DNA from: TPA_inf: Saccharomyces
Lineage: Eukaryota
Direction: 5' to 3'
NCBI GenBank assembly: GCA_000146045.2
Contig: BK006945.2
Coordinates: 640,001 to 704,000 of the forward strand
DNA: 64,000 nt
The translations under genes and the position numbers were made by a program. Each line of letters begins with the position of its first letter. The stretch's first letter is position 1. The notes beneath the pieces were generated by a model. That model did not search any database. It was given only the letters and a program-made list of their open reading frames with translations, and had not been told where the DNA came from. Positions 1 through 48,710 of the stretch are shown here, piece by piece.

Positions 1-316
1 TATTGTTTATTTTGGTAAAATATAGACGCAACTTCCTTATTATAAAGAAAGGCATTATTTAAAAGAAAAAGCGTTCCATTAGTCAGACATCTTTTTTTTT
101 CATACATTCTTAAGCTCAGGCAAATTGAGCATTGCCTCATACCCTTTTCGGTAAGAGGGTAACGAAAATATTTTTTTGGAAGAATAAAAATAGGTGACGG
201 ATCATAGACTAGGAAGCTTTAAAACATGATTGAGCGTAATATTATATTCCTTCTAGAAAAGATAAAAGAGCCAAGACCTAAAATTTTTTCATCCCTGTTC
301 TATTAAAATTGTGGAA

Positions 317-1021
317 ATGAGGTTTTTGAGGGGATTTGTATTTTCTTTGGCTTTCACTCTATATAAAGTAACTGCCACGGCAGAAATAGGATCTGAAATT
401 AATGTGGAAAATGAGGCACCACCTGATGGTTTATCCTGGGAGGAGTGGCATATGGACCATGAGCATCAGCTAAAAGATTACACTCCAGAGACTTTCTTCG
501 CGTTACATGATATCAAGAAGAAAGGATTTTTAGATGAAAACGATATTCTATCTCTCTACGGGTTGAACCGTGAAGAAATTGTGGGGGCTGGTGATGGTAT
601 GGGACAACACGATGAATCTGAGAAAATTGACAATGAAATGGCTAAGCGTGTTGTTAGCCTTATTATGAGGTTATTGGATGTTGATGATAATACCAAAATC
701 ACCAAGGAGGAATATCTACAATTTGCTAAGAGAGGAAACAAGTTCCCTGACCTTGGCGTTGGTGTAGGTCACCACTCCGATTTTGAGCTAGAATATGAAA
801 TTCATCACTGGAATAAGTTTCATAAGGACAAAGATCCAGACGTTAAAGTCGTTCACAAAGAAGACATAGAACATGAATTGCTTCATCATGAACATGAAAT
901 TGAACATGAAGAAGAAATTCAAAGAGGCGCTTCTAGAGCTACTGTAATAACTGATGACGAACTAGAGTCTAGAATAGAGCTGAAAAATATTCCCGAGAAA
1001 TTCAAAAATGGAATTTTTTAA
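317..1021 (+). CDS. SSP120: Ssp120, secretory-pathway EF-hand-like protein (234 aa; starts at the third codon of the 311..1021 ORF)
   Basis: Translation MRFLRGFVFSLAFTLYKVTATAEIG... has a signal-peptide-like N-terminus and a His/Glu-rich C-terminus. Length and sequence match yeast Ssp120 (YLR250W). Choosing the M at 317 gives 234 aa. Confidence 0.85.
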   Translation: MRFLRGFVFSLAFTLYKVTATAEIGSEINVENEAPPDGLSWEEWHMDHEHQLKDYTPETFFALHDIKKKGFLDENDILSLYGLNREEIVGAGDGMGQHDESEKIDNEMAKRVVSLIMRLLDVDDNTKITKEEYLQFAKRGNKFPDLGVGVGHHSDFELEYEIHHWNKFHKDKDPDVKVVHKEDIEHELLHHEHEIEHEEEIQRGASRATVITDDELESRIELKNIPEKFKNGIF

Positions 1022-1463
1022 TGGACTTGGTCAAGATGAATAGTTGAGACTGAGAAAATATTCAAGACACTATGTATGTAGTCAATTAGCATGTAGTAAG
1101 TAATCAAAGCACTTAAAATATATTTTTACCATCGCATCGTTGTGATGCCTCTCCTTTGTGATTAACTATCTACTTTAAACGTTCTATTTTCTATGTTCTA
1201 ATTACGTATGTATTGGTCTTTTCTCTCCGATGGTAACAAGAAGCGTTTCGGGAAACAGTGGCACCTCCTTGTCCCTTAAATGTCGAACTTTAACAGTATA
1301 AGTACAAAGTGAAAAAAAAAAAAAAATGGAAATATCTATGATAGTGATATGATAGAAGAGCTATTTGAATGCTATGTTGTCATATTTAGCCTTACAAAAG
1401 GGAAAAGGCAAACACAGTCTTTTGTTATTACTATAGGAAAGATAGAATTGATATTAAAACAGT

Positions 1464-2057
1464 ATGAAGTTATTGCATTTATATGAAGCGAGCTTGAAGA
1501 GAAGGCCCAAAACTACGAATGCGATAATGACAGGTGCGCTATTTGGAATTGGTGATGTTTCTGCTCAATTGTTGTTTCCAACATCCAAAGTAAACAAGGG
1601 TTATGATTATAAAAGGACAGCTAGGGCTGTCATCTATGGTTCTTTAATTTTCTCCTTTATAGGTGACAAGTGGTACAAGATCTTGAACAACAAGATTTAT
1701 ATGCGTAACAGACCTCAGTACCACTGGTCTAATATGGTTTTACGGGTAGCTGTCGATCAATTGGCGTTTGCGCCGCTAGGTTTGCCATTTTATTTCACCT
1801 GTATGTCCATCATGGAAGGTAGATCATTTGACGTAGCTAAGTTGAAAATAAAAGAGCAATGGTGGCCTACACTTTTGACTAATTGGGCAGTTTGGCCACT
1901 TTTCCAAGCGATTAACTTTTCTGTTGTTCCTTTACAACATAGGTTACTAGCTGTTAATGTCGTTGCAATATTTTGGAACACTTACTTATCTTATAAAAAC
2001 TCAAAGGTTATGGAGAAAGACAAGGTACCTGTTCATTATCCACCCGTGGTCGAATAA
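1464..2057 (+). CDS. SYM1: Sym1, mitochondrial inner-membrane Mpv17/PMP22-family protein (197 aa)
   Basis: [38 protein letters not shown]... is 197 aa with multiple predicted TM helices. It matches Sym1 (YLR251W). Confidence 0.9.
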
Positions 2058-2626
2058 CTGGATAAGAAATCCTGATTTTGAAAATATTTGGAATTCAACT
2101 AGCATATTTATCAGACCTTGTTCCTTGGGGTACTGGAACAGCATATACCTAATAGACTTTCGGCAGAGAGCAGACCAACTTCATAAATATTTGAGTCACC
2201 AAAGTTGGCTAGCAATCTGCTTTTCCTTTACAGATGTGCTTGGTCAGGAACAATTTATTTAATTACATTCGTACTTCTTTTATAGAGGAAATAGTAGCTA
2301 ACATTTCACTATTGCGGTCATGCCTGTTGTTCTTCAGCTACCGTTTATGCAAAGGTGTTTAATTAGGTGTGAGACTTAAGTGGGCCTTTTAGTACCACTG
2401 TGGGTTCTGGACCTTTATATAATATTTCATTTTTTCAAAGGTTTTTTCATATGCCGTTAAAAGAGGTCAAAACATAGACCCGAGGAACATATCTTGTAAA
2501 TCGCTGCGTTATGTATGCATATTGTACTCCTACCTTCGTAACTGGAAAGAATCAGTCTGAAAGTTTATTGAGCCTGAAACGGAGCAAGATTATAGTTGAA
2601 TGTTTCTTATTCGGTGTTGATAGTAG

Positions 2627-4336
2627 ATGATGACCAAAGCTTTTTTTAACAAACTACCGTTTGAGGTATTCCGTCGGTACGTTAGGACAGGTAAAAGCAT
2701 CCCTCAAAGAAGCCCCAGGACAAGAAAATCTCTTCTGGTGGGTGGGACTATTGCATCAGCAGTAGTTTTGTACAACTTTAATGACACTTTTCATGATTCT
2801 GTAAAGCACACGGCACTGACGACTAAAAGAATCGCTGTCGTCACACAAGCTACCACTCGTTGCTTCTACCATTACAAGAGGGCTCTAAATAAAAGCTATG
2901 AGAACAAAAAAGAACGAGAAGTTGCCTTAAATAAATGTCATAAGATGTGTGCCTTAATCACGTTGCATGCGCTACGATCGAATGGTGGGATATATATCAA
3001 ATTAGGCCAGCACATTGGGGCCATGACCTACCTGTTGCCTAAAGAATGGACGGATACAATGATACCGTTGCAAGACCACTGTCCCGAATCCACCTACGAA
3101 GAAATTGATGAGTTATTTAAAGAAGATCTAGGCACCAGCATTGAGGATATGTTTTTAGAATTCAACAAAACCCCGATAGGTGTAGCTTCCTTGGCACAGG
3201 TTCATGTGGCAAAACTAAAAAATAGTGACGGTAAAGGTTCTAGTGTAGCTGTCAAATGTCAGCATCCATCGTTGAAGGAGTTTATACCATTAGATGTTAT
3301 GCTGACAAGAACAGTGTTTGAACTGCTGGATGTCTTCTTCCCTGATTATCCGTTAACGTGGCTTGGTGATGAGCTTCAGTCTTCAATCTACGTGGAACTG
3401 AATTTTACCAAAGAAGCTGAAAATGCAGAAAAAACCCGTCATTATTTTAGTAAGTTCAAGAAGCAAACAGCATTGAAAATACCCAAGGTCATTGAAAGCC
3501 ACAAAAGAATTTTGATTATGGAATATGTTGGAGGCAAAAGGTTGGATGATTTGGAGTACATTGACAGTCACGGTATCTCGCGCAGTGAAGTTTCGAGTTG
3601 TCTCTCTCATATTTTCAATAACATGATTTTTACTCCCAATGTAGGTATTCATTGTGATCCTCATGGAGGAAATCTGGCCATACGATCTGTTAAGCCCGCT
3701 AAAGATAATGGATACCATAACTTTGAAATTGTTTTATTTGACCACGGACTCTATAGATATCCTAGCACGAGAACAAGAAGACTTTATGCCAAATTTTGGT
3801 TGTCGCTCCTATTCGACAAGGACCAGACAAAAATGAAGAAGTATGCCAAAGGATTCGCAAACATCACCGACGAACAGTTTCCCCTTTTAGCGGCTGCAAT
3901 TACGGGCCGTAGCATTGATGCTGCTTTGAATTACGACATTTCAACGAGTCGAACACAAGAAGAAATGGACGTCATGGCAAATGGGATCTTGGAAGGAACG
4001 TTACTGAGCGACTTGATGAGCATTTTGTCTAGAATCCCTCGTGTAGTGCTTTTGATATTGAAGACTAACGACCTAACCAGACATCTTGATGAATGTCTAC
4101 AGAATCCACTCGGGCCAGAGAGGACTTTCCTGATCATGACGCAATACTGCGCCAAGACGGTCTACGACGAAAAAGTGGAAAGAATTAATTCGGAGTATGC
4201 GAGGTGGTCTATTAAATGGATGTGGGAGAACTTGACAAACTGGATAGTCTATGAGAGGCGTATTAATCAATTGTATTTTTATGATTTTGTGTTGTGGTGG
4301 AAAAAATTTATTCCGAAGACTTGGTTGTCATCTTAA
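2627..4336 (+). CDS. MCP2: Mcp2, ABC1/ADCK-family atypical kinase of the mitochondrial inner membrane (569 aa)
   Basis: 569-aa ORF containing ABC1-kinase signatures (VAVKCQHP..., HCDPHGGNLAI, FDHGLY). Position and length match YLR253W. Confidence 0.85.
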   Translation: MMTKAFFNKLPFEVFRRYVRTGKSIPQRSPRTRKSLLVGGTIASAVVLYNFNDTFHDSVKHTALTTKRIAVVTQATTRCFYHYKRALNKSYENKKEREVALNKCHKMCALITLHALRSNGGIYIKLGQHIGAMTYLLPKEWTDTMIPLQDHCPESTYEEIDELFKEDLGTSIEDMFLEFNKTPIGVASLAQVHVAKLKNSDGKGSSVAVKCQHPSLKEFIPLDVMLTRTVFELLDVFFPDYPLTWLGDELQSSIYVELNFTKEAENAEKTRHYFSKFKKQTALKIPKVIESHKRILIMEYVGGKRLDDLEYIDSHGISRSEVSSCLSHIFNNMIFTPNVGIHCDPHGGNLAIRSVKPAKDNGYHNFEIVLFDHGLYRYPSTRTRRLYAKFWLSLLFDKDQTKMKKYAKGFANITDEQFPLLAAAITGRSIDAALNYDISTSRTQEEMDVMANGILEGTLLSDLMSILSRIPRVVLLILKTNDLTRHLDECLQNPLGPERTFLIMTQYCAKTVYDEKVERINSEYARWSIKWMWENLTNWIVYERRINQLYFYDFVLWWKKFIPKTWLSS

Positions 4337-4403
4337 ATCGTTAGCGTTCTTTCTACTTGTAAATATATACGTAAAATTATATATAACAATTTTATATGTG
4401 TCA

Positions 4404-4973
4404 TTAAACGGAAGACGTTGTTGCTATCACAGTGGATTGTGTTATTTGGGTATTTGGAATATTACAGTGACTTCTTGCAGCGTTGTTAGTTTTTGCCATG
4501 TTCTGCAAGTACAAGGTTGAAGATGTGGTCGAGACTTTGATAGTATCCTTAAACAACTTCATTTTTTTATTTTGACTGGGTAACGACCTGGTGTTCCTTC
4601 TAGTCTCACCGCTAGTGGCTTCTTCTTTGCTGACTCTTAACTTTTGCAGCGCCTCTTTGGTGTCGAGTAACTCGTGTTCCAGTAGAACGTTGCGTTCCAG
4701 TCGTCGGTCACTCTCCAATTGTAATGTCTCTATCTTATTCCTCAGTTGGATATTTTCATTTTCCAACTCATCTACCTGTATCTCTAAATCTGTTATCTGT
4801 TTCTTATTGCACTTATTTTGTTGTTGGCTCTCAAGAAGATCGCTTTTTAACTTTGATATTACTTGTTCCAAATCATTTTCATATTCTTTCGTGGCGCCTT
4901 CAAGCTCGCTCAACTGGGTCTCCAGTGAGGAGATTATCTGTATAGCTGTTTCCAAATCCAAATTCGGCACCAT
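4404..4973 (-). CDS. NDL1: Ndl1, NudE-like coiled-coil dynein regulator (189 aa)
   Basis: 189-aa minus-strand ORF, heptad/coiled-coil rich (LETQLSELEGATKEYENDLEQVISKLKSDLLES...). It matches YLR254C. Confidence 0.85.
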   Translation of the reverse strand: MVPNLDLETAIQIISSLETQLSELEGATKEYENDLEQVISKLKSDLLESQQQNKCNKKQITDLEIQVDELENENIQLRNKIETLQLESDRRLERNVLLEHELLDTKEALQKLRVSKEEATSGETRRNTRSLPSQNKKMKLFKDTIKVSTTSSTLYLQNMAKTNNAARSHCNIPNTQITQSTVIATTSSV

Positions 4974-6414
4974 AGGAAAGTCGCAATTGTTGCACGTATA
5001 TGTCCCTTGGATATTCCAATTAAATTTGCGAGGATTGTTCTTTCGGCCGTTCGTGGTTTGTTGTAGCCCTTATTATCCCTCTTTTTCATCCTTAATTGCA
5101 AATTTATGTATGAAAACTTTCATTTCTAATGTTATTAATTTTCCCGATTCTGCAAACTAATTGATAAAATAATTGATACTTGCCGTCACAGATGATATAG
5201 AGAACGTTCAGTTTTTTTATTGTTCTATTGTAAAAAAAAAAAAAAAAGGAAGAAAAAAGCAAGATCCGATAGGAGAAGACCTCTTTAGCGGCTTTACTGC
5301 GCTACAAATAAGGTTACGAATATGCGGAATAGTTCATGATACGTTGTTGAGTTATAGTATGTAGCCAATATTTCCTGTTTTTCCGCTGTTACCCTTTTCG
5401 AAGGATCGATGAACGCTTCTGTCACTTAGTAAGCAAATGTACGAAACCCAGAGCATTGTATGTACACCAGCAGTCGTTTTTTGTAGCTCTTTTCCATGGA
5501 TGGACGATGATGGCAAGACGCGATCGTGGCGGAGCCTCACTAAGAAAAACAATTGTGGAGAATCTATACACACAGAAATCGTACTTCAAGAAATATTGAT
5601 TAGCGAGCCTTTAAGCACAGAACAATCTCTATAGCCAACATCTTGTGGAAGCTACAACTGTTTTTCTTGTTCCCGCTTGAGTAGGGCCTTACAAGGCAAG
5701 ACCGTATAAAATAAAGATAACTCCTCCGCCGTATCCTGAATTTCGTGTGCCCTTTCTCTCTCTCTCTCTTCCTCTTTCTTCCTTTCCCTTTCCCTCTTCT
5801 TCTTATCTCAACAACCGCCCAGCGCATTAGCAAACCACAGTACGAGCTGTACGGCTGAGCCACTGCACCTGTCTGGCTTGCCCCTTTTTGTTGAGTAACC
5901 GGGTAATAATTCGGCTGTCTAAACGATACAATCCTCGTTCCACCCACACCCATTCACCCGTCGGGCGAAATCCACCCTCGCGGCCTCGTTTAGAATACCA
6001 GGCAACGGCACCAGCAACGGCCCCGGTAACTCGATCGCGTTCATATATATCGGATATACTCTTGAGGCACAATTTTTTTCGGTTTTCGGTTTTTTCTATT
6101 ATTCTTCGAGATGCAAAGCACACATTTGAGACTCACAACTCAAGATACCGCAAGCACACAGACGCTATTGTTCTCCCAAAGAATAGGTTCCTGCAGTGCT
6201 CTTTTAAGGTTTGAAGATATTGCACAAAATTGTATCTGATTTCATCTCATCGAACCTCATTCCATCAACTTCCTTTTATCAAAGCATCTTGTTTTGTTTT
6301 CGCAGAAAATTTTTCTTCCCTTTCAATTTGGCCTTTTAGTTTTTCTCCAGTCGCAGGCAAGAAGGTAAGGAAATAGAAGAAAAAGAAAAAAAAAAAAAGG
6401 GAACAATAGGTTAG

Positions 6415-9400
6415 ATGTCGAATACCCCTTATAATTCATCTGTGCCTTCCATTGCATCCATGACCCAGTCTTCGGTCTCAAGAAGTCCTAACATGCATAC
6501 AGCAACTACGCCCGGTGCCAACACCAGCTCTAACTCTCCACCCTTGCACATGTCTTCAGATTCGTCCAAGATCAAGAGGAAGCGTAACAGAATTCCGCTC
6601 AGTTGCACCATTTGTCGGAAAAGGAAAGTCAAATGTGACAAACTCAGACCACACTGCCAGCAGTGCACTAAAACTGGGGTAGCCCATCTCTGCCACTACA
6701 TGGAACAGACCTGGGCAGAAGAGGCAGAGAAAGAATTGCTGAAGGACAACGAATTAAAGAAGCTTAGGGAGCGCGTAAAATCTTTAGAAAAGACTCTTTC
6801 TAAGGTGCACTCTTCTCCTTCGTCTAACTCCTTGAAAAGTTACAACACTCCCGAGAGCAGCAACCTGTTTATGGGTAGCGATGAACACACCACCCTTGTT
6901 AATGCAAATACAGGCTCTGCTTCCTCTGCCTCGCATATGCATCAGCAACAACAGCAACAGCAGCAACAGGAACAACAACAAGACTTTTCCAGAAGTGCGA
7001 ACGCCAACGCGAATTCCTCGTCCCTTTCTATCTCAAATAAATATGACAACGATGAGCTGGACTTAACTAAGGACTTTGATCTTTTGCATATCAAAAGTAA
7101 CGGAACCATCCACTTAGGTGCCACCCACTGGTTGTCTATCATGAAAGGTGACCCGTACCTAAAACTTTTGTGGGGTCATATCTTCGCTATGAGGGAAAAG
7201 TTAAATGAATGGTACTACCAAAAAAATTCGTACTCTAAGCTGAAGTCAAGCAAATGTCCCATCAATCACGCGCAAGCGCCGCCTTCTGCCGCTGCCGCCG
7301 CTACCAGAAAATGTCCTGTTGATCACTCCGCGTTTTCGTCTGGCATGGTGGCCCCAAAGGAGGAGACTCCTCTTCCTAGGAAATGTCCAGTTGACCACAC
7401 CATGTTCTCTTCGGGAATGATTCCTCCCAGAGAGGACACTTCGTCCCAGAAGAGGTGTCCCGTTGACCACACCATGTATTCCGCAGGAATGATGCCGCCC
7501 AAGGACGAGACACCTTCCCCATTTTCCACTAAAGCTATGATAGACCATAACAAGCATACAATGAATCCGCCTCAGTCAAAATGTCCTGTGGACCATAGAA
7601 ACTATATGAAGGATTATCCCTCTGACATGGCAAATTCTTCTTCGAACCCGGCAAGTCGTTGCCCCATTGACCATTCAAGCATGAAAAATACAGCGGCCTT
7701 ACCAGCTTCAACGCACAATACCATCCCACACCACCAACCACAGTCCGGATCTCATGCTCGTTCGCATCCCGCACAAAGCAGGAAACATGATTCCTACATG
7801 ACAGAATCTGAAGTCCTCGCAACACTTTGTGAGATGTTGCCACCAAAGCGCGTCATCGCATTATTCATCGAGAAATTCTTCAAACATTTATACCCTGCCA
7901 TTCCAATCTTAGATGAACAGAATTTCAAAAATCACGTGAATCAAATGCTTTCGTTGTCTTCGATGAATCCCACAGTTAACAACTTTGGTATGAGCATGCC
8001 ATCTTCATCTACACTAGAGAACCAACCCATAACACAAATCAATCTTCCAAAACTTTCCGATTCTTGTAACTTAGGTATTCTGATAATAATCTTGAGATTG
8101 ACATGGCTATCCATACCTTCTAATTCCTGCGAAGTCGACCTGGGAGAAGAAAGTGGCTCATTTTTAGTGCCCAACGAATCTAGCAATATGTCTGCATCTG
8201 CATTGACCTCGATGGCTAAAGAAGAATCACTTCTGCTAAAGCATGAGACACCGGTCGAGGCACTGGAGCTATGTCAAAAATACTTGATTAAATTCGATGA
8301 ACTTTCTAGTATTTCCAATAACAACGTTAATTTAACCACGGTGCAGTTTGCCATTTTTTACAACTTCTATATGAAAAGTGCCTCTAATGATTTGACTACC
8401 TTGACAAATACCAACAACACTGGCATGGCCAATCCTGGTCACGATTCCGAGTCTCACCAGATCCTATTGTCCAATATTACTCAAATGGCCTTTAGTTGTG
8501 GGTTACACAGAGACCCTGATAATTTTCCTCAATTAAACGCTACCATTCCAGCAACCAGCCAGGACGTGTCTAACAACGGGAGCAAAAAGGCAAACCCTAG
8601 CACCAATCCAACTTTGAATAACAACATGTCTGCTGCCACTACCAACAGCAGTAGCAGATCTGGCAGTGCTGATTCAAGAAGTGGTTCTAACCCTGTGAAC
8701 AAGAAGGAAAATCAGGTTAGTATCGAAAGATTTAAACACACTTGGAGGAAAATTTGGTATTACATTGTTAGCATGGATGTTAACCAATCTCTTTCCCTGG
8801 GGAGCCCTCGACTACTAAGAAATCTGAGGGATTTCAGCGATACAAAGCTACCAAGTGCGTCAAGGATTGATTATGTTCGCGATATCAAAGAGTTAATCAT
8901 TGTGAAGAATTTTACTCTTTTTTTCCAAATTGATTTGTGTATTATTGCTGTATTAAATCACATTTTGAATGTTTCTTTAGCAAGAAGCGTGAGAAAATTT
9001 GAACTGGATTCATTGATTAATTTATTGAAAAATCTGACCTATGGTACTGAGAATGTCAATGATGTAGTGAGCTCCTTGATCAACAAAGGGTTATTACCAA
9101 CTTCGGAAGGTGGTTCTGTAGATTCAAATAATGATGAAATTTACGGTCTACCGAAACTACCCGATATTCTAAACCATGGTCAACATAACCAAAACTTGTA
9201 TGCTGATGGAAGAAATACTTCTAGTAGTGATATAGATAAGAAATTGGACCTTCCTCACGAATCTACAACGAGAGCTCTATTCTTTTCCAAGCATATGACA
9301 ATTAGAATGTTGCTGTACTTATTGAACTACATTTTGTTTACTCATTATGAACCAATGGGCAGTGAAGATCCTGGTACTAATATCCTAGCTAAGGAGTACG

Positions 9401-10923
9401 CTCAAGAGGCATTAAATTTTGCCATGGATGGCTACAGAAACTGCATGATTTTCTTCAACAATATCAGAAACACCAATTCACTATTCGATTACATGAATGT
9501 TATCTTGTCTTACCCTTGTTTGGACATTGGACATCGTTCTTTACAATTTATCGTTTGTTTGATCCTGAGAGCTAAATGTGGCCCATTGACTGGTATGCGT
9601 GAATCATCGATCATTACTAATGGTACATCAAGTGGATTTAATAGTTCGGTAGAAGATGAGGACGTCAAAGTTAAACAAGAATCTTCTGATGAATTGAAAA
9701 AAGACGATTTCATGAAAGATGTAAATTTGGATTCAGGCGATTCATTAGCAGAGATTCTAATGTCAAGAATGCTGCTATTTCAAAAACTAACAAAACAACT
9801 ATCAAAGAAGTACAACTACGCTATTCGTATGAACAAATCCACTGGATTCTTTGTCTCTTTACTAGATACACCTTCAAAGAAATCAGACTCGAAATCGGGT
9901 GGTAGTTCATTCATGTTGGGTAATTGGAAACATCCAAAGGTTTCAAACATGAGCGGATTTCTTGCTGGTGACAAAGACCAATTACAGAAATGCCCCGTGT
10001 ACCAAGATGCGCTGGGGTTTGTTAGTCCAACCGGTGCTAATGAAGGTTCTGCTCCGATGCAAGGCATGTCCTTACAGGGCTCTACTGCTAGGATGGGAGG
10101 GACCCAGTTGCCACCAATTAGATCATACAAACCTATCACGTACACAAGTAGTAATCTACGTCGTATGAATGAAACGGGTGAGGCAGAAGCTAAGAGAAGA
10201 AGATTTAATGATGGCTATATTGATAATAATAGTAACAACGATATACCTAGAGGAATCAGCCCAAAACCTTCAAATGGGCTATCATCGGTGCAGCCACTAT
10301 TATCGTCATTTTCCATGAACCAGCTAAACGGGGGTACCATTCCAACGGTTCCATCGTTAACCAACATTACTTCACAAATGGGAGCTTTACCATCTTTAGA
10401 TAGGATCACCACTAATCAAATAAATTTGCCAGACCCATCTAGAGATGAAGCATTTGACAACTCCATCAAGCAAATGACGCCTATGACAAGTGCATTCATG
10501 AATGCTAATACTACAATTCCAAGTTCAACTTTAAACGGGAATATGAACATGAATGGAGCTGGAACTGCGAATACAGATACAAGTGCCAACGGCAGTGCTT
10601 TATCGACACTGACAAGCCCACAAGGCTCAGACTTAGCATCCAATTCTGCTACACAGTATAAACCTGACTTAGAAGACTTTTTGATGCAAAATTCTAACTT
10701 TAATGGGCTAATGATAAATCCTTCCAGTCTGGTAGAAGTTGTTGGTGGATACAACGATCCTAATAACCTTGGAAGAAATGACGCGGTTGATTTTCTACCC
10801 GTTGATAATGTTGAAATTGATGGTGTTGGAATAAAAATCAACTATCATCTACTAACTAGTATTTACGTTACTAGTATATTATCATATACGGTGTTAGAAG
10901 ATGACGCAAATGATGAGAAATAG
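6415..10923 (+). CDS. HAP1: Hap1 heme-activated Zn2Cys6 transcription factor in its Ty1-disrupted S288C-type form; the last 32 codons are read from the Ty1 5' LTR
   Basis: The N-terminus carries the Zn2Cys6 cluster CTICRKRKVKCDKLRPHCQQCTK. It also has a polyQ tract and seven KCPVDH-type heme-regulatory motifs. The ORF runs into TGTTGGAATA... (LTR) at 10824 and stops at 10921-10923 inside the LTR (...VGIKINYHLLTSIYVTSILSYTVLEDDANDEK), giving 1502 aa. Confidence 0.95.
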   Translation: MSNTPYNSSVPSIASMTQSSVSRSPNMHTATTPGANTSSNSPPLHMSSDSSKIKRKRNRIPLSCTICRKRKVKCDKLRPHCQQCTKTGVAHLCHYMEQTWAEEAEKELLKDNELKKLRERVKSLEKTLSKVHSSPSSNSLKSYNTPESSNLFMGSDEHTTLVNANTGSASSASHMHQQQQQQQQQEQQQDFSRSANANANSSSLSISNKYDNDELDLTKDFDLLHIKSNGTIHLGATHWLSIMKGDPYLKLLWGHIFAMREKLNEWYYQKNSYSKLKSSKCPINHAQAPPSAAAAATRKCPVDHSAFSSGMVAPKEETPLPRKCPVDHTMFSSGMIPPREDTSSQKRCPVDHTMYSAGMMPPKDETPSPFSTKAMIDHNKHTMNPPQSKCPVDHRNYMKDYPSDMANSSSNPASRCPIDHSSMKNTAALPASTHNTIPHHQPQSGSHARSHPAQSRKHDSYMTESEVLATLCEMLPPKRVIALFIEKFFKHLYPAIPILDEQNFKNHVNQMLSLSSMNPTVNNFGMSMPSSSTLENQPITQINLPKLSDSCNLGILIIILRLTWLSIPSNSCEVDLGEESGSFLVPNESSNMSASALTSMAKEESLLLKHETPVEALELCQKYLIKFDELSSISNNNVNLTTVQFAIFYNFYMKSASNDLTTLTNTNNTGMANPGHDSESHQILLSNITQMAFSCGLHRDPDNFPQLNATIPATSQDVSNNGSKKANPSTNPTLNNNMSAATTNSSSRSGSADSRSGSNPVNKKENQVSIERFKHTWRKIWYYIVSMDVNQSLSLGSPRLLRNLRDFSDTKLPSASRIDYVRDIKELIIVKNFTLFFQIDLCIIAVLNHILNVSLARSVRKFELDSLINLLKNLTYGTENVNDVVSSLINKGLLPTSEGGSVDSNNDEIYGLPKLPDILNHGQHNQNLYADGRNTSSSDIDKKLDLPHESTTRALFFSKHMTIRMLLYLLNYILFTHYEPMGSEDPGTNILAKEYAQEALNFAMDGYRNCMIFFNNIRNTNSLFDYMNVILSYPCLDIGHRSLQFIVCLILRAKCGPLTGMRESSIITNGTSSGFNSSVEDEDVKVKQESSDELKKDDFMKDVNLDSGDSLAEILMSRMLLFQKLTKQLSKKYNYAIRMNKSTGFFVSLLDTPSKKSDSKSGGSSFMLGNWKHPKVSNMSGFLAGDKDQLQKCPVYQDALGFVSPTGANEGSAPMQGMSLQGSTARMGGTQLPPIRSYKPITYTSSNLRRMNETGEAEAKRRRFNDGYIDNNSNNDIPRGISPKPSNGLSSVQPLLSSFSMNQLNGGTIPTVPSLTNITSQMGALPSLDRITTNQINLPDPSRDEAFDNSIKQMTPMTSAFMNANTTIPSSTLNGNMNMNGAGTANTDTSANGSALSTLTSPQGSDLASNSATQYKPDLEDFLMQNSNFNGLMINPSSLVEVVGGYNDPNNLGRNDAVDFLPVDNVEIDGVGIKINYHLLTSIYVTSILSYTVLEDDANDEK

Positions 10924-11157
10924 TCATCTAAATTAGTGGAAGCTGAAACGCAAGGATTGATAATGTAATAGGATCAATGAATATTAACATATAAAACGAT
11001 GATAATAATATTTATAGAATTGTGTAGAATTGCAGATTCCCTTTTATGGATTCCTAAATCCTCGAGGAGAACTTCTAGTATATTCTGTATACCTAATATT
11101 ATAGCCTTTATCAACAATGGAATCCCAACAATTATCTCAACACCCACACATTTCTCA
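10824..11157 (+). repeat. Ty1 5' LTR (delta), 334 bp
   Basis: Starts TGTTGGAATAAAAATCAACTATCATCTACTAACTAG and ends ...CATTTCTCA. It is almost identical to the 3' LTR, differing at about 4 positions, all within the last 25 bp. Confidence 0.95.
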
Positions 11158-12439
11158 TGGTAGCGCCTGTGCTTCGGTTACTTCTAAGGAAGTCCACACA
11201 AATCAAGATCCGTTAGACGTTTCAGCTTCCAAAACAGAAGAATGTGAGAAGGCTTCCACTAAGGCTAACTCTCAACAGACAACAACACCTGCTTCATCAG
11301 CTGTTCCAGAGAACCCCCATCATGCCTCTCCTCAACCTGCTTCAGTACCACCTCCACAGAATGGGCCGTACCCACAGCAGTGCATGATGACCCAAAACCA
11401 AGCCAATCCATCTGGTTGGTCATTTTACGGACACCCATCTATGATTCCGTATACACCTTATCAAATGTCGCCTATGTACTTTCCACCTGGGCCACAATCA
11501 CAGTTTCCGCAGTATCCATCATCAGTTGGAACGCCTCTGAGCACTCCATCACCTGAGTCAGGTAATACATTTACTGATTCATCCTCAGCGGACTCTGATA
11601 TGACATCCACTAAAAAATATGTCAGACCACCACCAATGTTAACCTCACCTAATGACTTTCCAAATTGGGTTAAAACATACATCAAATTTTTACAAAACTC
11701 GAATCTCGGTGGTATTATTCCGACAGTAAACGGAAAACCCGTACGTCAGATCACTGATGATGAACTCACCTTCTTGTATAACACTTTTCAAATATTTGCT
11801 CCCTCTCAATTCCTACCTACCTGGGTCAAAGACATCCTATCCGTTGATTATACGGATATCATGAAAATTCTTTCCAAAAGTATTGAAAAAATGCAATCTG
11901 ATACCCAAGAGGCAAACGACATTGTGACCCTGGCAAATTTGCAATATAATGGCAGTACACCTGCAGATGCATTTGAAACAAAAGTCACAAACATTATCGA
12001 CAGACTGAACAATAATGGCATTCATATCAATAACAAGGTCGCATGCCAATTAATTATGAGAGGTCTATCTGGCGAATATAAATTTTTACGCTACACACGT
12101 CATCGACATCTAAATATGACAGTCGCTGAACTGTTCTTAGATATCCATGCTATTTATGAAGAACAACAGGGATCGAGAAACAGCAAACCTAATTACAGGA
12201 GAAATCTGAGTGATGAGAAGAATGATTCTCGCAGCTATACGAATACAACCAAACCCAAAGTTATAGCTCGGAATCCTCAAAAAACAAATAATTCGAAATC
12301 GAAAACAGCCAGGGCTCACAATGTATCCACATCTAATAACTCTCCCAGCACGGACAACGATTCCATCAGTAAATCAACTACTGAACCGATTCAATTGAAC
12401 AATAAGCACGACCTTCACCTTAGGCCAGGAACTTACTGA
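11117..12439 (+). CDS. Ty1 TYA (Gag) capsid protein, 440 aa; it starts inside the 5' LTR
   Basis: [35 protein letters not shown]... is 440 aa. The +1 frameshift heptamer CTTAGGC lies at 12419-12425, just before the TYA stop. Confidence 0.95.
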
Positions 12440-13385
12440 ATCTACGGTAAATCACACTAATCATTCTGATGATGAACTCCCTGGACACCTCCTTCTCGAT
12501 TCAGGAGCATCACGAACCCTTATAAGATCTGCTCACCACATACACTCAGCATCATCTAATCCTGACATAAACGTAGTTGATGCTCAAAAAAGAAATATAC
12601 CAATTAACGCTATTGGTGACCTACAATTTCACTTCCAGGACAACACCAAAACATCAATAAAGGTATTGCACACTCCTAACATAGCCTATGACTTACTCAG
12701 TTTGAATGAATTGGCTGCAGTAGATATCACAGCATGCTTTACCAAAAACGTCTTAGAACGGTCTGACGGCACTGTACTTGCACCTATCGTAAAATATGGA
12801 GACTTTTACTGGGTATCTAAAAAGTACTTGCTTCCATCAAATATCTCCGTACCCACCATCAATAATGTCCATACAAGTGAAAGTACACGCAAATATCCTT
12901 ATCCTTTCATTCATCGAATGCTTGCGCATGCCAATGCACAGACAATTCGATACTCACTTAAAAATAACACCATCACGTATTTTAACGAATCAGATGTCGA
13001 CTGGTCTAGTGCTATTGACTATCAATGTCCTGATTGTTTAATCGGCAAAAGCACCAAACACAGACATATCAAAGGTTCACGACTAAAATACCAAAATTCA
13101 TACGAACCCTTTCAATACCTACATACTGACATATTTGGTCCAGTTCACAACCTACCAAATAGTGCACCATCCTATTTCATCTCATTTACTGATGAGACAA
13201 CAAAATTCCGTTGGGTTTATCCATTACACGACCGTCGCGAGGACTCTATCCTCGATGTTTTTACTACGATACTAGCTTTTATTAAAAACCAGTTTCAGGC
13301 CAGTGTCTTAGTTATACAAATGGACCGTGGTTCTGAGTATACTAACAGAACTCTCCATAAATTCCTTGAAAAAAAAATGGTATAA
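12423..13385 (+). pseudogene. Ty1 TYB (Pol) part 1: protease and integrase N-terminus, read in the +1 frame; it terminates prematurely after an A9 tract
   Basis: The frame entered by the +1 shift at CTT-AGG-C encodes [11 protein letters not shown] (protease DSG) and the integrase zinc finger H..H..CPDC. It ends ...HKFLEKKMV* at 13383-13385, immediately after a 9-A run at 13369-13377. Confidence 0.8.
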
Positions 13386-16300
13386 CTCCATGCTATACAA
13401 CCACAGCGGATTCCCGAGCACATGGAGTCGCTGAACGGCTAAACCGTACCTTATTAGATGACTGCCGTACTCAACTGCAATGTAGTGGTTTACCGAACCA
13501 TTTATGGTTCTCTGCAATCGAATTTTCTACTATTGTGAGAAATTCACTAGCTTCACCTAAAAGCAAAAAATCTGCAAGACAACATGCTGGCTTGGCAGGA
13601 CTTGATATCAGTACTTTGTTACCTTTCGGTCAACCTGTTATCGTCAATGATCACAACCCTAACTCCAAAATACATCCTCGTGGCATCCCAGGCTACGCTC
13701 TACATCCGTCTCGAAACTCTTATGGATATATCATCTATCTTCCGTCCTTAAAGAAGACAGTAGATACAACTAACTATGTTATTCTTCAGGGCAAGGAATC
13801 CAGATTAGATCAATTCAATTACGACGCACTCACTTTCGATGAAGACTTAAACCGTTTAACTGCTTCATATCATTCGTTCATTGCGTCAAATGAGATCCAA
13901 GAATCCAATGATCTTAACATAGAATCTGACCATGACTTCCAATCCGACATTGAACTACATCCTGAGCAACCGAGAAATGTCCTTTCAAAAGCTGTGAGTC
14001 CAACCGATTCCACACCTCCGTCAACTCATACTGAAGATTCGAAACGTGTTTCTAAAACCAATATTCGCGCACCCAGAGAAGTTGACCCCAACATATCTGA
14101 ATCTAATATTCTTCCATCAAAGAAGAGATCTAGCACCCCCCAAATTTCCAATATCGAGAGTACCGGTTCGGGTGGTATGCATAAATTAAATGTTCCTTTA
14201 CTTGCTCCCATGTCCCAATCTAACACACATGAGTCGTCGCACGCCAGTAAATCTAAAGATTTCAGACACTCAGACTCGTACAGTGAAAATGAGACTAATC
14301 ATACAAACGTACCAATATCCAGTACGGGTGGTACCAACAACAAAACTGTTCCGCAGATAAGTGACCAAGAGACTGAGAAAAGGATTATACACCGTTCACC
14401 TTCAATCGATGCTTCTCCACCGGAAAATAATTCATCGCACAATATTGTTCCTATCAAAACGCCAACTACTGTTTCTGAACAGAATACCGAGGAATCTATC
14501 ATCGCTGATCTCCCACTCCCTGATCTACCTCCAGAATCTCCTACCGAATTCCCTGACCCATTTAAAGAACTCCCACCGATAAATTCTCGTCAAACTAATT
14601 CCAGTTTGGGTGGTATTGGTGACTCTAATGCCTATACTACTATCAACAGTAAGAAAAGATCATTAGAAGATAATGAAACTGAAATTAAGGTATCACGAGA
14701 CACATGGAATACTAAGAATATGCGTAGTTTAGAACCTCCGAGATCGAAGAAACGAATTCACCTGATTGCAGCTGTAAAAGCAGTAAAATCAATCAAACCA
14801 ATACGGACAACCTTACGATACGATGAGGCAATCACCTATAATAAAGATATTAAAGAAAAAGAAAAATATATCGAGGCATACCACAAAGAAGTCAATCAAC
14901 TGTTGAAGATGAAAACTTGGGACACTGACGAATATTATGACAGAAAAGAAATAGACCCTAAAAGAGTAATAAACTCAATGTTTATCTTCAACAAGAAACG
15001 TGACGGTACTCATAAAGCTAGATTTGTTGCAAGAGGTGATATTCAGCATCCTGACACTTACGACTCAGGCATGCAATCCAATACCGTACATCACTATGCA
15101 TTAATGACATCCCTGTCACTTGCATTAGACAATAACTACTATATTACACAATTAGACATATCTTCGGCATATTTGTATGCAGACATCAAAGAAGAATTAT
15201 ACATAAGACCTCCACCACATTTAGGAATGAATGATAAGTTGATACGTTTGAAGAAATCACTTTATGGATTGAAACAAAGTGGAGCGAACTGGTACGAAAC
15301 TATCAAATCATACCTGATACAACAATGTGGTATGGAAGAAGTTCGTGGATGGTCATGCGTATTTAAAAACAGTCAAGTGACAATTTGTTTATTCGTAGAT
15401 GATATGGTATTGTTTAGCAAAAATCTAAATTCAAACAAAAGAATTATAGAGAAGCTTAAGATGCAATACGACACCAAGATTATAAATCTAGGCGAAAGTG
15501 ATGAGGAAATTCAATATGACATACTTGGCTTAGAAATCAAATATCAAAGAGGTAAATACATGAAATTAGGTATGGAAAACTCATTAACTGAGAAAATACC
15601 CAAATTAAACGTACCTTTGAATCCAAAAGGAAGAAAACTTAGCGCTCCAGGTCAACCAGGTCTTTATATAGACCAGGATGAACTAGAAATAGATGAAGAT
15701 GAATACAAAGAGAAGGTACATGAAATGCAAAAGTTGATTGGTCTAGCTTCATATGTTGGATATAAATTTAGATTTGACTTACTATACTACATCAACACAC
15801 TTGCTCAACATATACTATTCCCCTCTAGGCAAGTTTTAGACATGACATATGAGTTAATACAATTCATGTGGGACACTAGAGATAAACAATTAATATGGCA
15901 CAAAAACAAACCTACCAAGCCAGATAATAAACTAGTCGCAATAAGCGATGCTTCATATGGTAACCAACCATATTACAAGTCACAAATTGGTAACATTTTC
16001 CTACTCAACGGAAAAGTGATTGGAGGAAAGTCGACAAAGGCTTCGTTAACATGCACTTCAACTACAGAAGCAGAAATACACGCAGTCAGTGAAGCTATAC
16101 CGCTATTGAATAACCTCAGTCACCTTGTGCAAGAACTTAACAAGAAACCAATTATTAAAGGCTTACTTACTGATAGTAGATCAACGATCAGTATAATTAA
16201 GTCTACAAATGAAGAGAAATTTAGAAACAGATTTTTTGGCACAAAGGCAATGAGACTTAGAGATGAAGTATCAGGTAATAATTTATACGTATACTACATC

Positions 16301-16387
16301 GAGACCAAGAAGAACATTGCTGATGTGATGACAAAACCTCTTCCGATAAAAACATTTAAACTATTAACAAACAAATGGATTCATTAG
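13376..16387 (+). pseudogene. Ty1 TYB (Pol) part 2: rest of integrase, reverse transcriptase (YVDDM-type motif [11 protein letters not shown]) and RNase H, in a frame shifted -1 relative to part 1
   Basis: Translation from about 13376 in frame 2 gives [24 protein letters not shown]... and runs to the stop at 16385-16387 (...LLTNKWIH*). This is colinear with Ty1 Pol but out of frame with part 1. Confidence 0.8.
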
Positions 16388-16409
16388 ATCTATTACATTA
16401 TGGGTGGTA

Positions 16410-16743
16410 TGTTGGAATAAAAATCAACTATCATCTACTAACTAGTATTTACGTTACTAGTATATTATCATATACGGTGTTAGAAGATGACGCAAATGAT
16501 GAGAAATAGTCATCTAAATTAGTGGAAGCTGAAACGCAAGGATTGATAATGTAATAGGATCAATGAATATTAACATATAAAACGATGATAATAATATTTA
16601 TAGAATTGTGTAGAATTGCAGATTCCCTTTTATGGATTCCTAAATCCTCGAGGAGAACTTCTAGTATATTCTGTATACCTAATATTATAGCCTTTATCAA
16701 CAATGGAATCCCAACAATTATCTAATTACCCACAAATTTCTCA
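16410..16743 (+). repeat. Ty1 3' LTR (delta), 334 bp
   Basis: TGTTGGAATAAAAATCAACTATC...CAAATTTCTCA, preceded by the polypurine tract GGGTGGTA. Confidence 0.95.
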
Positions 16744-16791
16744 GATGGACTAGTAGATTTTTATAGAGCAGATTTTCCAATATGGGAGTGA
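16744..16791 (+). other. HAP1: Orphaned original HAP1 3' end: TSD copy, 13 displaced C-terminal codons (LVDFYRADFPIWE) and the native TGA stop
   Basis: Reading gat gga cta gta gat ttt tat aga gca gat ttt cca ata tgg gag tga continues the HAP1 frame across the TSD. These codons are no longer joined to the ORF. Confidence 0.85.
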
Positions 16792-16919
16792 TGCGGTTTG
16801 TTTATGTATAAATAGAAAGGGACATATTTTTATTATTATTATTTTAGTTATTTAGCATGTATGTTATTTTATCGGTGAATTGTAATGATCGAATAATAAT
16901 TGGAGGTTGAAGAAGTTGC

Positions 16920-16925
16920 AAAAAA
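16920..16925 (-). terminator. RNA polymerase III terminator: T6 on the minus strand, 8 nt downstream of the tRNA-Ala 3' end
   Basis: An A6 run on the plus strand at 16920-16925 reads as T6 on the transcribed strand, just after the tRNA body. Confidence 0.7.
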
Positions 16926-16933
16926 TATTTACT

Positions 16934-17006
16934 TGGACGAGTCCGGAATCGAACCGGAGACCTCTCCCATGCTAAGGGAGCGCGCTACCGACTACGCCAC
17001 ACGCCC
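16934..17006 (-). tRNA. tA(AGC): tRNA-Ala (anticodon AGC), 73 nt
   Basis: The reverse complement GGGCGTGTGGCGTAGTCGGTAGCGCGCTCCCTTAGCATGGGAGAGGTCTCCGGTTCGATTCCGGACTCGTCCA folds as a cloverleaf. It has the G3:U70 alanine identity pair and the anticodon loop TTAGCAT, and A/B-box-like segments are present. Confidence 0.95.
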
Positions 17007-17021
17007 AATTTTCTTGTTGTC

Positions 17022-17364
17022 TGTTGTGTTTCAGAATGGGGTACGTCAGTATGATAATAATCATCCTAAACGTTCTTAAATTACATATGAAACAACCTTA
17101 TAGCAAAACGAACAGAATGAGCAACATGAGATGAAACTCCGCCTCCTTAACTGAACTTTCCAAACGTATAAACGCCTGAAAAATTAGTTTAGATCCGAGA
17201 TTCCGCGCTTCCACCATCAAGTATGATCCATATTTTATATAATATATAAGATAAGTAACATTCCGTAAGCTGATAATCCCTTTTGGCAACTCGTTACTTC
17301 CCAAAGACTGTTTATATTAGGATTGTCAAGGGACCCCGGTATTGCTCGAGCCCGTAATACAACA
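17022..17364 (+). mobile_element. Ty3 sigma solo LTR (~343 bp); it starts 16 bp upstream of the tRNA-Ala 5' end
   Basis: TGTTGTGTTTCAGAATGGGGTACGTCAGTATGA...GAGCCCGTAATACAACA matches the sigma consensus (TGTTGTATCTCAAAATGAGAT...CCCGTAATACAACA). It is flanked by GTTGTC on both sides, consistent with a 5-bp TSD. The position is typical of Ty3 integration at Pol III start sites. Confidence 0.9.
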
Positions 17365-17448
17365 GTTGTCTTTCACTGCTCTCTATGTTTTGAGACCTCC
17401 AGTTCACCACATATATTCGATCTTTTTCTTACTGTTGAAGCAAGAATC

Positions 17449-17767
17449 TGTTGGAATGAAGGCCTAGTATTGTCTATTGACTAATATTCATCTTACTAGT
17501 ATATTATCATATACAGTGTAAGAAGATGGCATAAAGATTGAGAACCAGTCATCAGACTAATGAAAGCTGAAATGCAAGGACTGATAATGTAATGGGATAA
17601 TGAAATATATAAAACGGAAGGAGAAATAACCGTGATATTATTATGTAGATTTACCGACTCCACTTGGAGGATTTCTCTATTCTCGAGGGAAACTTGGTAT
17701 ATTCGTACACCTAATATTATAGCTCTTGATAACAATGAAATTTCAACAATTATTCACTCAACCCTCA
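17449..17767 (+). mobile_element. Degenerate Ty1/Ty2 delta solo LTR (~320 bp; the 3' boundary is approximate)
   Basis: TGTTGGAATGAAGGCCTAGTATTGTC...ACTAGTATATTATCATATACAGTGTAAGAAGATGGCATAAAG...CTCGAGGGAAACTTGGTATATTCGTACACCTAATATTATAGC is about 80% similar to the Ty1 LTR. Confidence 0.8.
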
Positions 17768-18825
17768 AGTGTATATCGCCAAGATCCTAATCACCCCTCT
17801 CTGGTGGCCTTCCCTCATTGTTTTTACACAGAACAAGAATCCATAAAATCAAGATATTGGGAACAATTCATTGTCTTAGGAACAAGTTTTTATAATTTAG
17901 TTTCATTAGCCTATTGTAACTTCTTGTTTTTTTTTTTTATTTTGGCTGGCAAAACAAGAAGTATAAAGAAGTTACCACTGCTATAACGTATATCTTAAAT
18001 CAAGTGGGCAATTCTTCGAATAAACTTAGAGGCGCTGAAGAAAGAACCGCTCAATTAGTTCGATCATACAAAATACAGATATTGCGCTGTGTATTATCAT
18101 TACGGAAAGTGTGATATAAACAATGCTGTGTTGTATTCGGTCTTTTTTTTCCGCCTGGAGATTGTCGTTTTTGTTTTTTTTTCTCGTGTAGCTGCAGTTA
18201 TCATCGTTTTGCATGTCTGTTCTGTCGGTGAAGCCGATCTCATGGCACTTCGCTTTGATACCGTAAAGAATCTTCTTCATTAATACGGCACTGCAAGGCG
18301 ATATCTATCTCTGGGGTTAGGACTGATAAATAGGTACTTATCAGTTATCACTAGAGACGAACTGTTTACGTTTTGAAGCTCGACAGCAGGGGTTCTTAAC
18401 GGGCGTCGGCCTAGACCTCACCTTGCGAGAAATTTTTAGTTCATATCCAGGGGATGGTGAATGGTTGGATCTGACGAAGCCACGGTAAGGGCAAGGCTTT
18501 GCGCATGCACTGGCCACTATGCATACCATATATAAATAGATAATCAAGCGTATAGAAAACGACATGCTAAGTTATTTTACTCAGTGTTAGGTCTCTTAGT
18601 ATTTGCGTCTGAAAAGATCTTAGCTCTGTCTTTGACTCTATCACTTATTTTTAAGAGGTTCTCTATTCGTCAGTGATAGAAATAGCATTTTGACCCGCAC
18701 GACATTGGTTAATAAGAGTACTTTTCCACGTGTTTCGATTGCCTTTATTTTTAGCATACTTGAAAATAATATTATCGTGAGATTTAGGTAAAATATACCA
18801 CATATCAAGAGAAAGAGAAGTAAGA

Positions 18826-47858: not shown

Positions 47859-47932
47859 TGATTTCGCCCAGGATCGAACTGGGGACGTTCTGCGTGTTAA
47901 GCAGATGCCATAACCGACTAGACCACGAAACC
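47859..47932 (-). tRNA. tV(AAC): tRNA-Val (anticodon AAC), 74 nt. T6 Pol III terminator immediately 3' (plus-strand A6 at 47853-47858)
   Basis: The reverse complement GGTTTCGTGGTCTAGTCGGTTATGGCATCTGCTTAACACGCAGAACGTCCCCAGTTCGATCCTGGGCGAAATCA has the anticodon loop TTAACAC and the T-loop GTTCGATCC. Confidence 0.95.
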
Positions 47933-48039: not shown

Positions 48040-48710
48040 CTACTGGTAGTATTCATCCATTAGTATATTACTCTCTGTATAAGGTTATAATGTTGAAATG
48101 ATAATCAACTATTGTGTATGATCAATTGGTGAATAATTTGATAATTGTTGGGATTCCATTTTGCTTAAGGCAATATAATATTATGTATACACAATATACT
48201 AGAAGTTTCTCCTCAAGGATATAAGACTCAATAACATGGAAACAACATTTCTCCACAAAATTTTGTAATTATCTTTCTTCCATTTTATATGTTTCACATC
48301 CTATTAATCCTCAATTCTCGCATGTTCGGTTTCATATTAAATTTGACTACTGTTTCACATAGTATATTTGTTGAAATGAAACTCTAAAATATCATTTATT
48401 AGTAGTATTCATGTTACTAGAATCTATTATCATATGCGGTGTAACAAGATGGCATAAAGATTGGGAAACAGTCATCAAATATAATGGAAGCTGAAATGCA
48501 AGGACTGATAATGTAATAGGACAATGAAACATATAAAACGAAAGGTGTAATAATTATAAGATTTTGTGGAGAAATATTGTTTCTCTTTTATTGATTCGTA
48601 TATTCTCGAGGAGAACTTCTAGTATATTTCACATACTCAATAATATAACGTTTACTAAAGATGGTGTTAACATGTTAAAAAAACTTCGATTGTTAAGAGT
48701 CCTTTTGTTA
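48040..48710. mobile_element. Nest of degenerate Ty1/Ty2 delta LTR fragments in mixed orientation, 110-780 bp upstream of tRNA-Val. There is a plus-oriented delta at ~48369-48710, a minus-oriented delta 3' portion at ~48130-48368, and a short plus-oriented delta 5' fragment at ~48098-48130. Boundaries are approximate.
   Basis: The plus delta begins TGTTGAAATGAAACTC...ATCATATGCGGTGTAACAAGATGGCATAAAG...CTCGAGGAGAACTTCTAGTATAT. The minus fragment is ATAATTGTTGGGATTCCATTTTGCTTAAGGCAATATAATATTATGTATAC...CTAGAAGTTTCTCCTCAAGG, the reverse complement of a delta 3' half. Confidence 0.7.

Follow-up and report, generated by a model that had tools for sequence, protein, structure and literature searches.

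A Ty1 insertion in the 3′ coding end of HAP1 that matches the hap1::Ty1 allele of the Saccharomyces cerevisiae S288C laboratory lineage

The hap1::Ty1 allele of Saccharomyces cerevisiae S288C, in which a Ty1 retrotransposon interrupts the HAP1 gene, and its consequences have been in the literature since 1999. The original description is reportedly that of Gaisne et al. in 1999 (Curr Genet 36:195). Here, we analyze a stretch of 64,000 nucleotides of Saccharomyces DNA (contig BK006945.2, positions 640,001 to 704,000; hereafter the window), in which a full-length Ty1 element sits inside the 3′ coding end of HAP1, and we compare this locus with the described allele, with wild-type HAP1, and with canonical Ty1.

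In the described allele, Hap1 loses 13 residues and gains 32 from Ty1, and azole susceptibility is raised (PMC11580460). The insertion disrupts the C-terminal activation domain, and deletion of the element, YLRWTy1-3, raises fitness (PMC12997974). Hap1 function is reduced by the insertion, and of over 100 strains sequenced, S288c was the single one found to carry it (PMC5978988). W303 is wild type at HAP1 (PMC7397035; bioRxiv 10.1101/2025.09.16.676640), and the insertion has been genotyped by polymerase chain reaction (PCR) in crosses between BY and W303 strains (bioRxiv 10.1101/2025.09.16.676640). Strains with the insertion have a lower ergosterol content, and the upc2 ecm22 double deletion is lethal in S288C and not in W303, Hap1 function being described as "partially" compromised (PMC7397035).

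A Ty1 integration within codon 1470 of HAP1

The Ty1 of the window is 5,920 bp long and occupies positions 10824-16743, in the same orientation as HAP1; a base-for-base check places the interruption of the gene within codon 1470. HAP1 and all parts of the element described below lie on the forward strand. Directly outside the two long terminal repeats (LTRs), both a reading of 10600-11400 and 16300-17000 and a script found perfect copies of a 5-bp target-site duplication, GATGG. The left copy (10819-10823) comprises codon 1469, GAT, and the GG that opens Gly codon 1470, and the right copy lies at 16744-16748. Codon 1470 reads GGT in the window, its T being the first base of the LTR, and GGA at the empty site; the glycine is kept because both codons encode it. 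Beyond the right copy lies the orphaned native 3′ end of HAP1 (16749-16791), made of the last base of Gly codon 1470, the 13 codons LVDFYRADFPIWE (16750-16788), and the stop TGA (16789-16791). The insertion has moved the native stop and 3′ flank of the gene 5.9 kb downstream.

A single long open reading frame (ORF) spans the left junction. It covers 6415-10923 and encodes 1502 amino acids followed by TAG, residues 1-1470 being native and residues 1471-1502 encoded by the LTR. The native part ends in ...VEIDG and is followed by the 32-residue tail VGIKINYHLLTSIYVTSILSYTVLEDDANDEK, which together with its TAG takes up 10825-10923. By exact-sequence look-up, the 1502-residue product is identical to RefSeq NP_013357.1 / DAA09568.1, the Hap1p of S. 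cerevisiae S288C. When 10824-16748 (the Ty1 and one GATGG) was excised in silico, the rebuilt product was a protein of 1483 residues, which the same kind of look-up found to be identical to UniProt HAP1/CYP1 and to many natural-isolate proteins.

Both states of the site are also found in other assemblies. Four Ty1-free assemblies (L001-L004) encode the 1483-residue protein and have a single GATGG and no Ty1 LTR at the site, and their uninterrupted HAP1 3′ end is identical to the orphaned 3′ end of the window. One of them, L001 (GCA_947370245.1, CANCFQ010000012.1, positions 1-10410), and the window stripped of the Ty1 and of one GATGG are collinear along 10,410 bp, where they differ by 1 mismatch and need no gap. 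The pattern does not arise by chance. The occupied site is present in L005 (GCA_016858165.1), which carries the 1502-residue protein and whose match to the window reaches 99.995% across 18.9 kb, element included. At the protein level, 14/14 of the other listed cluster members from S. cerevisiae have LVDFYRADFPIWE as their C-terminus, as do P0031 of S. kudriavzevii and the 90%-identical P0032.

A Ty1 repeat mis-joined into HAP1 during assembly could in principle produce such a junction, as the element is multi-copy and able to mislead assemblers. We reject this artefact as exceedingly improbable: the 5-bp duplication is perfect, excision gives the known 1483-residue protein exactly, and the same junctions occur in the RefSeq S288C proteins and in the independent record L005. 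Moreover, the allele is routinely genotyped by PCR (bioRxiv 10.1101/2025.09.16.676640), and the Ty1 has been removed by CRISPR with an effect on fitness (PMC12997974).

Since the target duplication, the empty site, and the occupied site are all documented, we conclude that this is a genuine Ty1 integration and that the window is of the S288C lineage. The region is almost certainly the hap1::Ty1 allele carried by laboratory strains of the S288C lineage, that is, YLR256W interrupted by YLRWTy1-3. This agrees with the original prediction, which had placed Ty1 inside the HAP1 ORF with a perfect GATGG duplication at coordinates that all hold, and had described the loss of the last 13 residues, whose codons we re-read at 16750-16788 up to the TGA, and the gain of 32 LTR-encoded residues to a total of 1502, counts that the ORF at 6415-10923 returns. 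It had taken LVDFYRADFPIWE as the native ending, as the wild-type proteins listed have it, and had relied on LTR identity at 10824-11157, where 330/334 positions agree with the 3′ LTR. Its recognition of the known S288C architecture, and of an S288C-like strain as the source, is borne out by the exact matches to both the wild-type 1483-residue form and the S288C form, by the identity of the 1502-residue product and of the Gag protein of the element with S288C proteins, and by the same account of 13 lost and 32 gained residues in the literature (PMC11580460). The allele was already known, and that interpretation of it was correct.

As a separate observation, the single mismatch in 10.4 kb marks L001 as very closely related to the haplotype that received the Ty1.

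The altered C-terminus and Hap1 function

The DNA-binding and heme-sensing parts of the chimeric protein are intact, and the change is confined to its C-terminal tip. The Zn2Cys6 domain is found at residues 63-96 (Pfam Zn_clus, PF00172), and residues 55-135 match the solved DNA-binding domain of Hap1/CYP1 in crystal and nuclear magnetic resonance structures (1HWT, 2HAP, 1QP9, 1PYC; E down to 2.7e-47). Hap1 is described as having seven heme-responsive motifs of the (K/R)CP(V/L)DH type (PMC11580460); seven motifs of the form [KR]CP[VIL] lie at residues 280, 299, 323, 347, 389, 415, and 1192 of the chimera, all of them upstream of the Ty1 junction.

We further analyzed the lost end in 73 Hap1 relatives from outside S. 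cerevisiae, all from the Saccharomycetaceae and covering, among others, the genera Saccharomyces, Torulaspora, Lachancea, Kluyveromyces, Naumovozyma, Kazachstania, Nakaseomyces, Tetrapisispora, and Vanderwaltozyma. A C-terminal W[E/D/N] ends 59/73 of these proteins, and the longer pattern [DEG][FILMY]x(1-2)W[EDN] stands at the extreme C-terminus of 52/73. The Hap1 C-terminus (residues ~1446-1483; 10750-10823 and 16750-16788) comprises two conserved blocks, DFLP(I/V)D...IDG and the terminal [D/E]FxxW[E/D], and the Ty1 splits them exactly: DFLPVDN..IDG is retained, while the acidic/aromatic DFPIWE is removed with the 13 lost residues. Over its first 24 residues, the replacement tail is hydrophobic, with a grand average of hydropathy of 1.10 and zero acidic residues, and the chimeric TAG falls at LTR positions 98-100, within the unique 3′ region (U3) of the 5′ LTR. 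The conservation of the terminal motif is a small addition of this work beyond the known allele, as are the defect in the Ty1 and the four clustered LTR differences described below.

These sequence features show that a full-length Ty1 entered codon 1470, duplicating the 5-bp target GATGG, and that translation now reads 32 codons into the U3 of the 5′ LTR before stopping at TAG. We propose that the main lesion is the loss of a conserved acidic/aromatic motif at the end of the activation domain, with a largely hydrophobic LTR-encoded peptide in its place. We infer that the defect arises mainly from this loss and replacement; loss of the native 3′ untranslated region (UTR) and terminator may contribute. 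A narrower proposal places the functional lesion in the removal of a terminal short linear motif, [D/E]-F-x-x-W-[E/D], rather than in a general disruption affecting the activation domain. We hold this tentatively, as a possibility somewhat short of even. If true, the S288C allele would amount to a point test, made by nature, of a co-regulator-binding motif that the family shares at the terminus.

The defect might instead lie mainly at the mRNA or protein level: deprived of its native 3′ UTR and terminator, the gene would form 3′ ends in or beyond the LTR and yield less or unstable Hap1. The displacement of the native stop and 3′ flank by 5.9 kb speaks for this, as does the position of the chimeric stop at LTR positions 98-100: because the stop lies inside U3, the chimeric transcript must end in Ty1 sequence. 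We nevertheless consider such a cause unlikely as the main one, at about one chance in a few, because the literature traces the defect to a disrupted C-terminal activation domain (PMC12997974) and the lost residues hold the motif conserved in 59/73 relatives. Motif loss and an effect on mRNA or protein level are compatible with each other. A further question is whether any function is left, since the azole susceptibility of BY4741, of S288C background, is similar to or slightly greater than that of hap1-delta, and hap1-Ty1 does not repress ERG genes under hypoxia (PMC11580460). These two phenotypes would fit an allele that is effectively null and not a partial loss. We regard this as quite improbable, given that Hap1 function is called "partially" compromised (PMC7397035), that the insertion is said to "reduce" it (PMC5978988), and that the DNA-binding domain and every heme-responsive-type motif are intact.

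No evidence speaks against the identity of the allele; three points bear on the proposed mechanism and on the extent of the loss. The loss of 13 residues, the gain of 32, and the loss of the 3′ UTR are inseparable as causes here. Candida glabrata Hap1B carrying a C-terminal 3xFLAG leaves growth unchanged with or without azole (PMC11580460), so that a C-terminal extension is not harmful per se, which points to the motif loss without proving it. Finally, "partial loss" is not general, because the fluconazole susceptibility of BY4741 is about like that of hap1-delta. The claim in the original prediction of reduced Hap1 function with effects on ergosterol stands by the literature (PMC5978988, PMC7397035, PMC12997974), while its description as a partial loss depends on the phenotype and is null-like for fluconazole (PMC11580460).

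Users of S288C, of BY4741/2, and of the deletion collections work with a compromised Hap1. Respiration, sterol, and azole phenotypes are affected by the allele, which upholds the earlier statement that it matters physiologically to anyone using this background, and the locus is a recurrent hotspot of quantitative trait loci and expression quantitative trait loci on chromosome XII. It is likewise by this allele that the window can be recognized as belonging to the S288C lineage. The allele is of practical importance and not a discovery.

Structure and surroundings of the Ty1 element

The element is bounded by a 5′ LTR, or delta, of 334 bp (10824-11157; TGTTGG...TTCTCA) and a 3′ LTR of the same length with TG...CA ends (16410-16743). 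The two are identical at 330/334 positions and differ solely at LTR positions 315, 317, 318, and 326 (11138-11149 versus 16724-16735). The first 314 bases are identical, and all four differences cluster at the tip of the unique 5′ region (U5). A fresh Ty1 insertion should carry identical LTRs. The U5 mismatches are most likely explained by a short tract of gene conversion or recombination after integration, which is favored because random decay of a fresh insertion would not cluster them.

Directly 3′ of the 5′ LTR lies the primer-binding site TGGTAGCGCC (11158-11167), which we take to be complementary to the 3′ end of the initiator tRNA-Met. At the other end, the polypurine-type tract GGGTGGTA (16402-16409) abuts the 3′ LTR and is presumably the plus-strand primer site. 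TYA (Gag; 11117-12439) starts within the 5′ LTR and encodes 440 amino acids with a Pfam TYA match (PF01021, E = 9.7e-234); its product is identical by exact-sequence look-up to NP_058173.1, the "Transposon Ty1-LR4 Gag polyprotein" of S288C. The heptamer of the +1 programmed frameshift, CTTAGGC, is present in a single copy in the element, at 12419-12425 in the overlap of TYA and TYB. A solo LTR and a Ty2 were both rejected as identities of the insertion, which has the full length of 5,920 bp, the Pfam TYA match, and a Gag equal to the S288C Ty1-LR4 Gag.

TYB is broken into two frames. The position of the break comes from a tblastn search whose query was P0023, a Ty1 Gag-Pol-like protein of the Gag cluster. 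The first segment (12399-13385), in a frame open from 12399, holds the protease together with the N-terminal portion of integrase and ends at a premature stop (13383-13385); residues 416-737 of P0023 are covered in this frame, and the Pfam rve match ends early, at profile position 89/102. The second segment (13370-16387), in a frame open from 13370, encodes the remainder of integrase together with reverse transcriptase and ribonuclease H (RNase H), with Pfam matches to RVT_2 and SH3_retrovirus. The frame changes between residues 737 and 733 of P0023, at a homopolymer of nine A (A9, 13369-13377). Across it, the window reads FLEKKMV and then a stop where intact Ty1 reads FLEKNGITP, and the continuation lies in another frame. 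At the protein level, the net shift would be +2 or -1 bases; from the codons, and not from a DNA alignment, we deduce a putative change from A7 to A9.

An uninterrupted TYB is needed for autonomy, though not for membership in Ty1, and the frame is broken here in the integrase core. Because of this break, the copy cannot yield the remaining part of integrase, nor reverse transcriptase or RNase H, and it is defective and incapable of autonomous transposition while structurally still a Ty1. The public annotation of the element names the Gag product alone, consistent with a broken TYB. A literature search on "YLR256W-A" for an account of the defective element found nothing. YLR256W-A is reportedly described in the reference database as part of a mutant retrotransposon.

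Outside the allele, and as context, ARAGORN identifies a tRNA-Ala(AGC) gene at 16933-17007 on the minus strand. The insertion lies 184 bp from its 3′ end, on the downstream side of the gene. Ty1 typically integrates within ~1 kb upstream of a gene that RNA polymerase III (Pol III) transcribes, a preference and not a defining rule (PMC3545840); despite its proximity to tRNA-Ala(AGC), this Ty1 is not placed upstream of it.

The upstream side of the tRNA-Ala gene has LTRs of its own. A solo LTR at ~17022-17364 (TGTTGT...ACAACA), ~14 bp from the 5′ end of the gene, is sigma-like, and we take it to be a sigma (Ty3-type) LTR. It is followed at 17449-17762 by a degenerate delta solo LTR that is 75% identical to the Ty1 LTR. 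Such a cluster of LTRs is typical of the surroundings of tRNA genes. The Ty1-free assembly L004 (Logan contig SRR12125317, with an identical 1483-residue Hap1) is without ~835 bp of this region (6630-6640 of L004 versus 16934-17768 of the window); the missing segment spans the tRNA-Ala, the sigma, and the delta and is either a real deletion or a repeat-driven assembly shortcut. Further along the window, delta-LTR fragments ~75-77% identical to the Ty1 LTR (48140-48654) adjoin a tRNA-Val(AAC) gene on the minus strand (47859-47932).

Comparison with the known allele, wild-type HAP1, and canonical Ty1

Compared with canonical autonomous Ty1 (Ty1-copia/Pseudoviridae), the element shares the 334-bp LTRs with TG...CA ends, the 5-bp duplication, the primer-binding site TGGTAGCGCC, the polypurine tract, TYA, the CTTAGGC heptamer, and the customary succession of protease, integrase, and reverse transcriptase. 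It differs in that its TYB is broken at A9 and its LTRs diverge at four clustered U5 positions, and in that it is inserted 3′ of the nearest tRNA gene and not in the usual upstream window (PMC3545840).

Compared with wild-type HAP1/CYP1 (1483 residues; W303, natural isolates, and UniProt), residues 1-1470 are identical and the flanks are collinear, whereas the wild-type gene has one GATGG, no Ty1, and the C-terminus LVDFYRADFPIWE. Against the hap1::Ty1 allele of S288C, we detected no difference: the insertion point, the orientation, the exchange of 13 residues for 32, the 1502-residue product, and the Gag protein are all the same.

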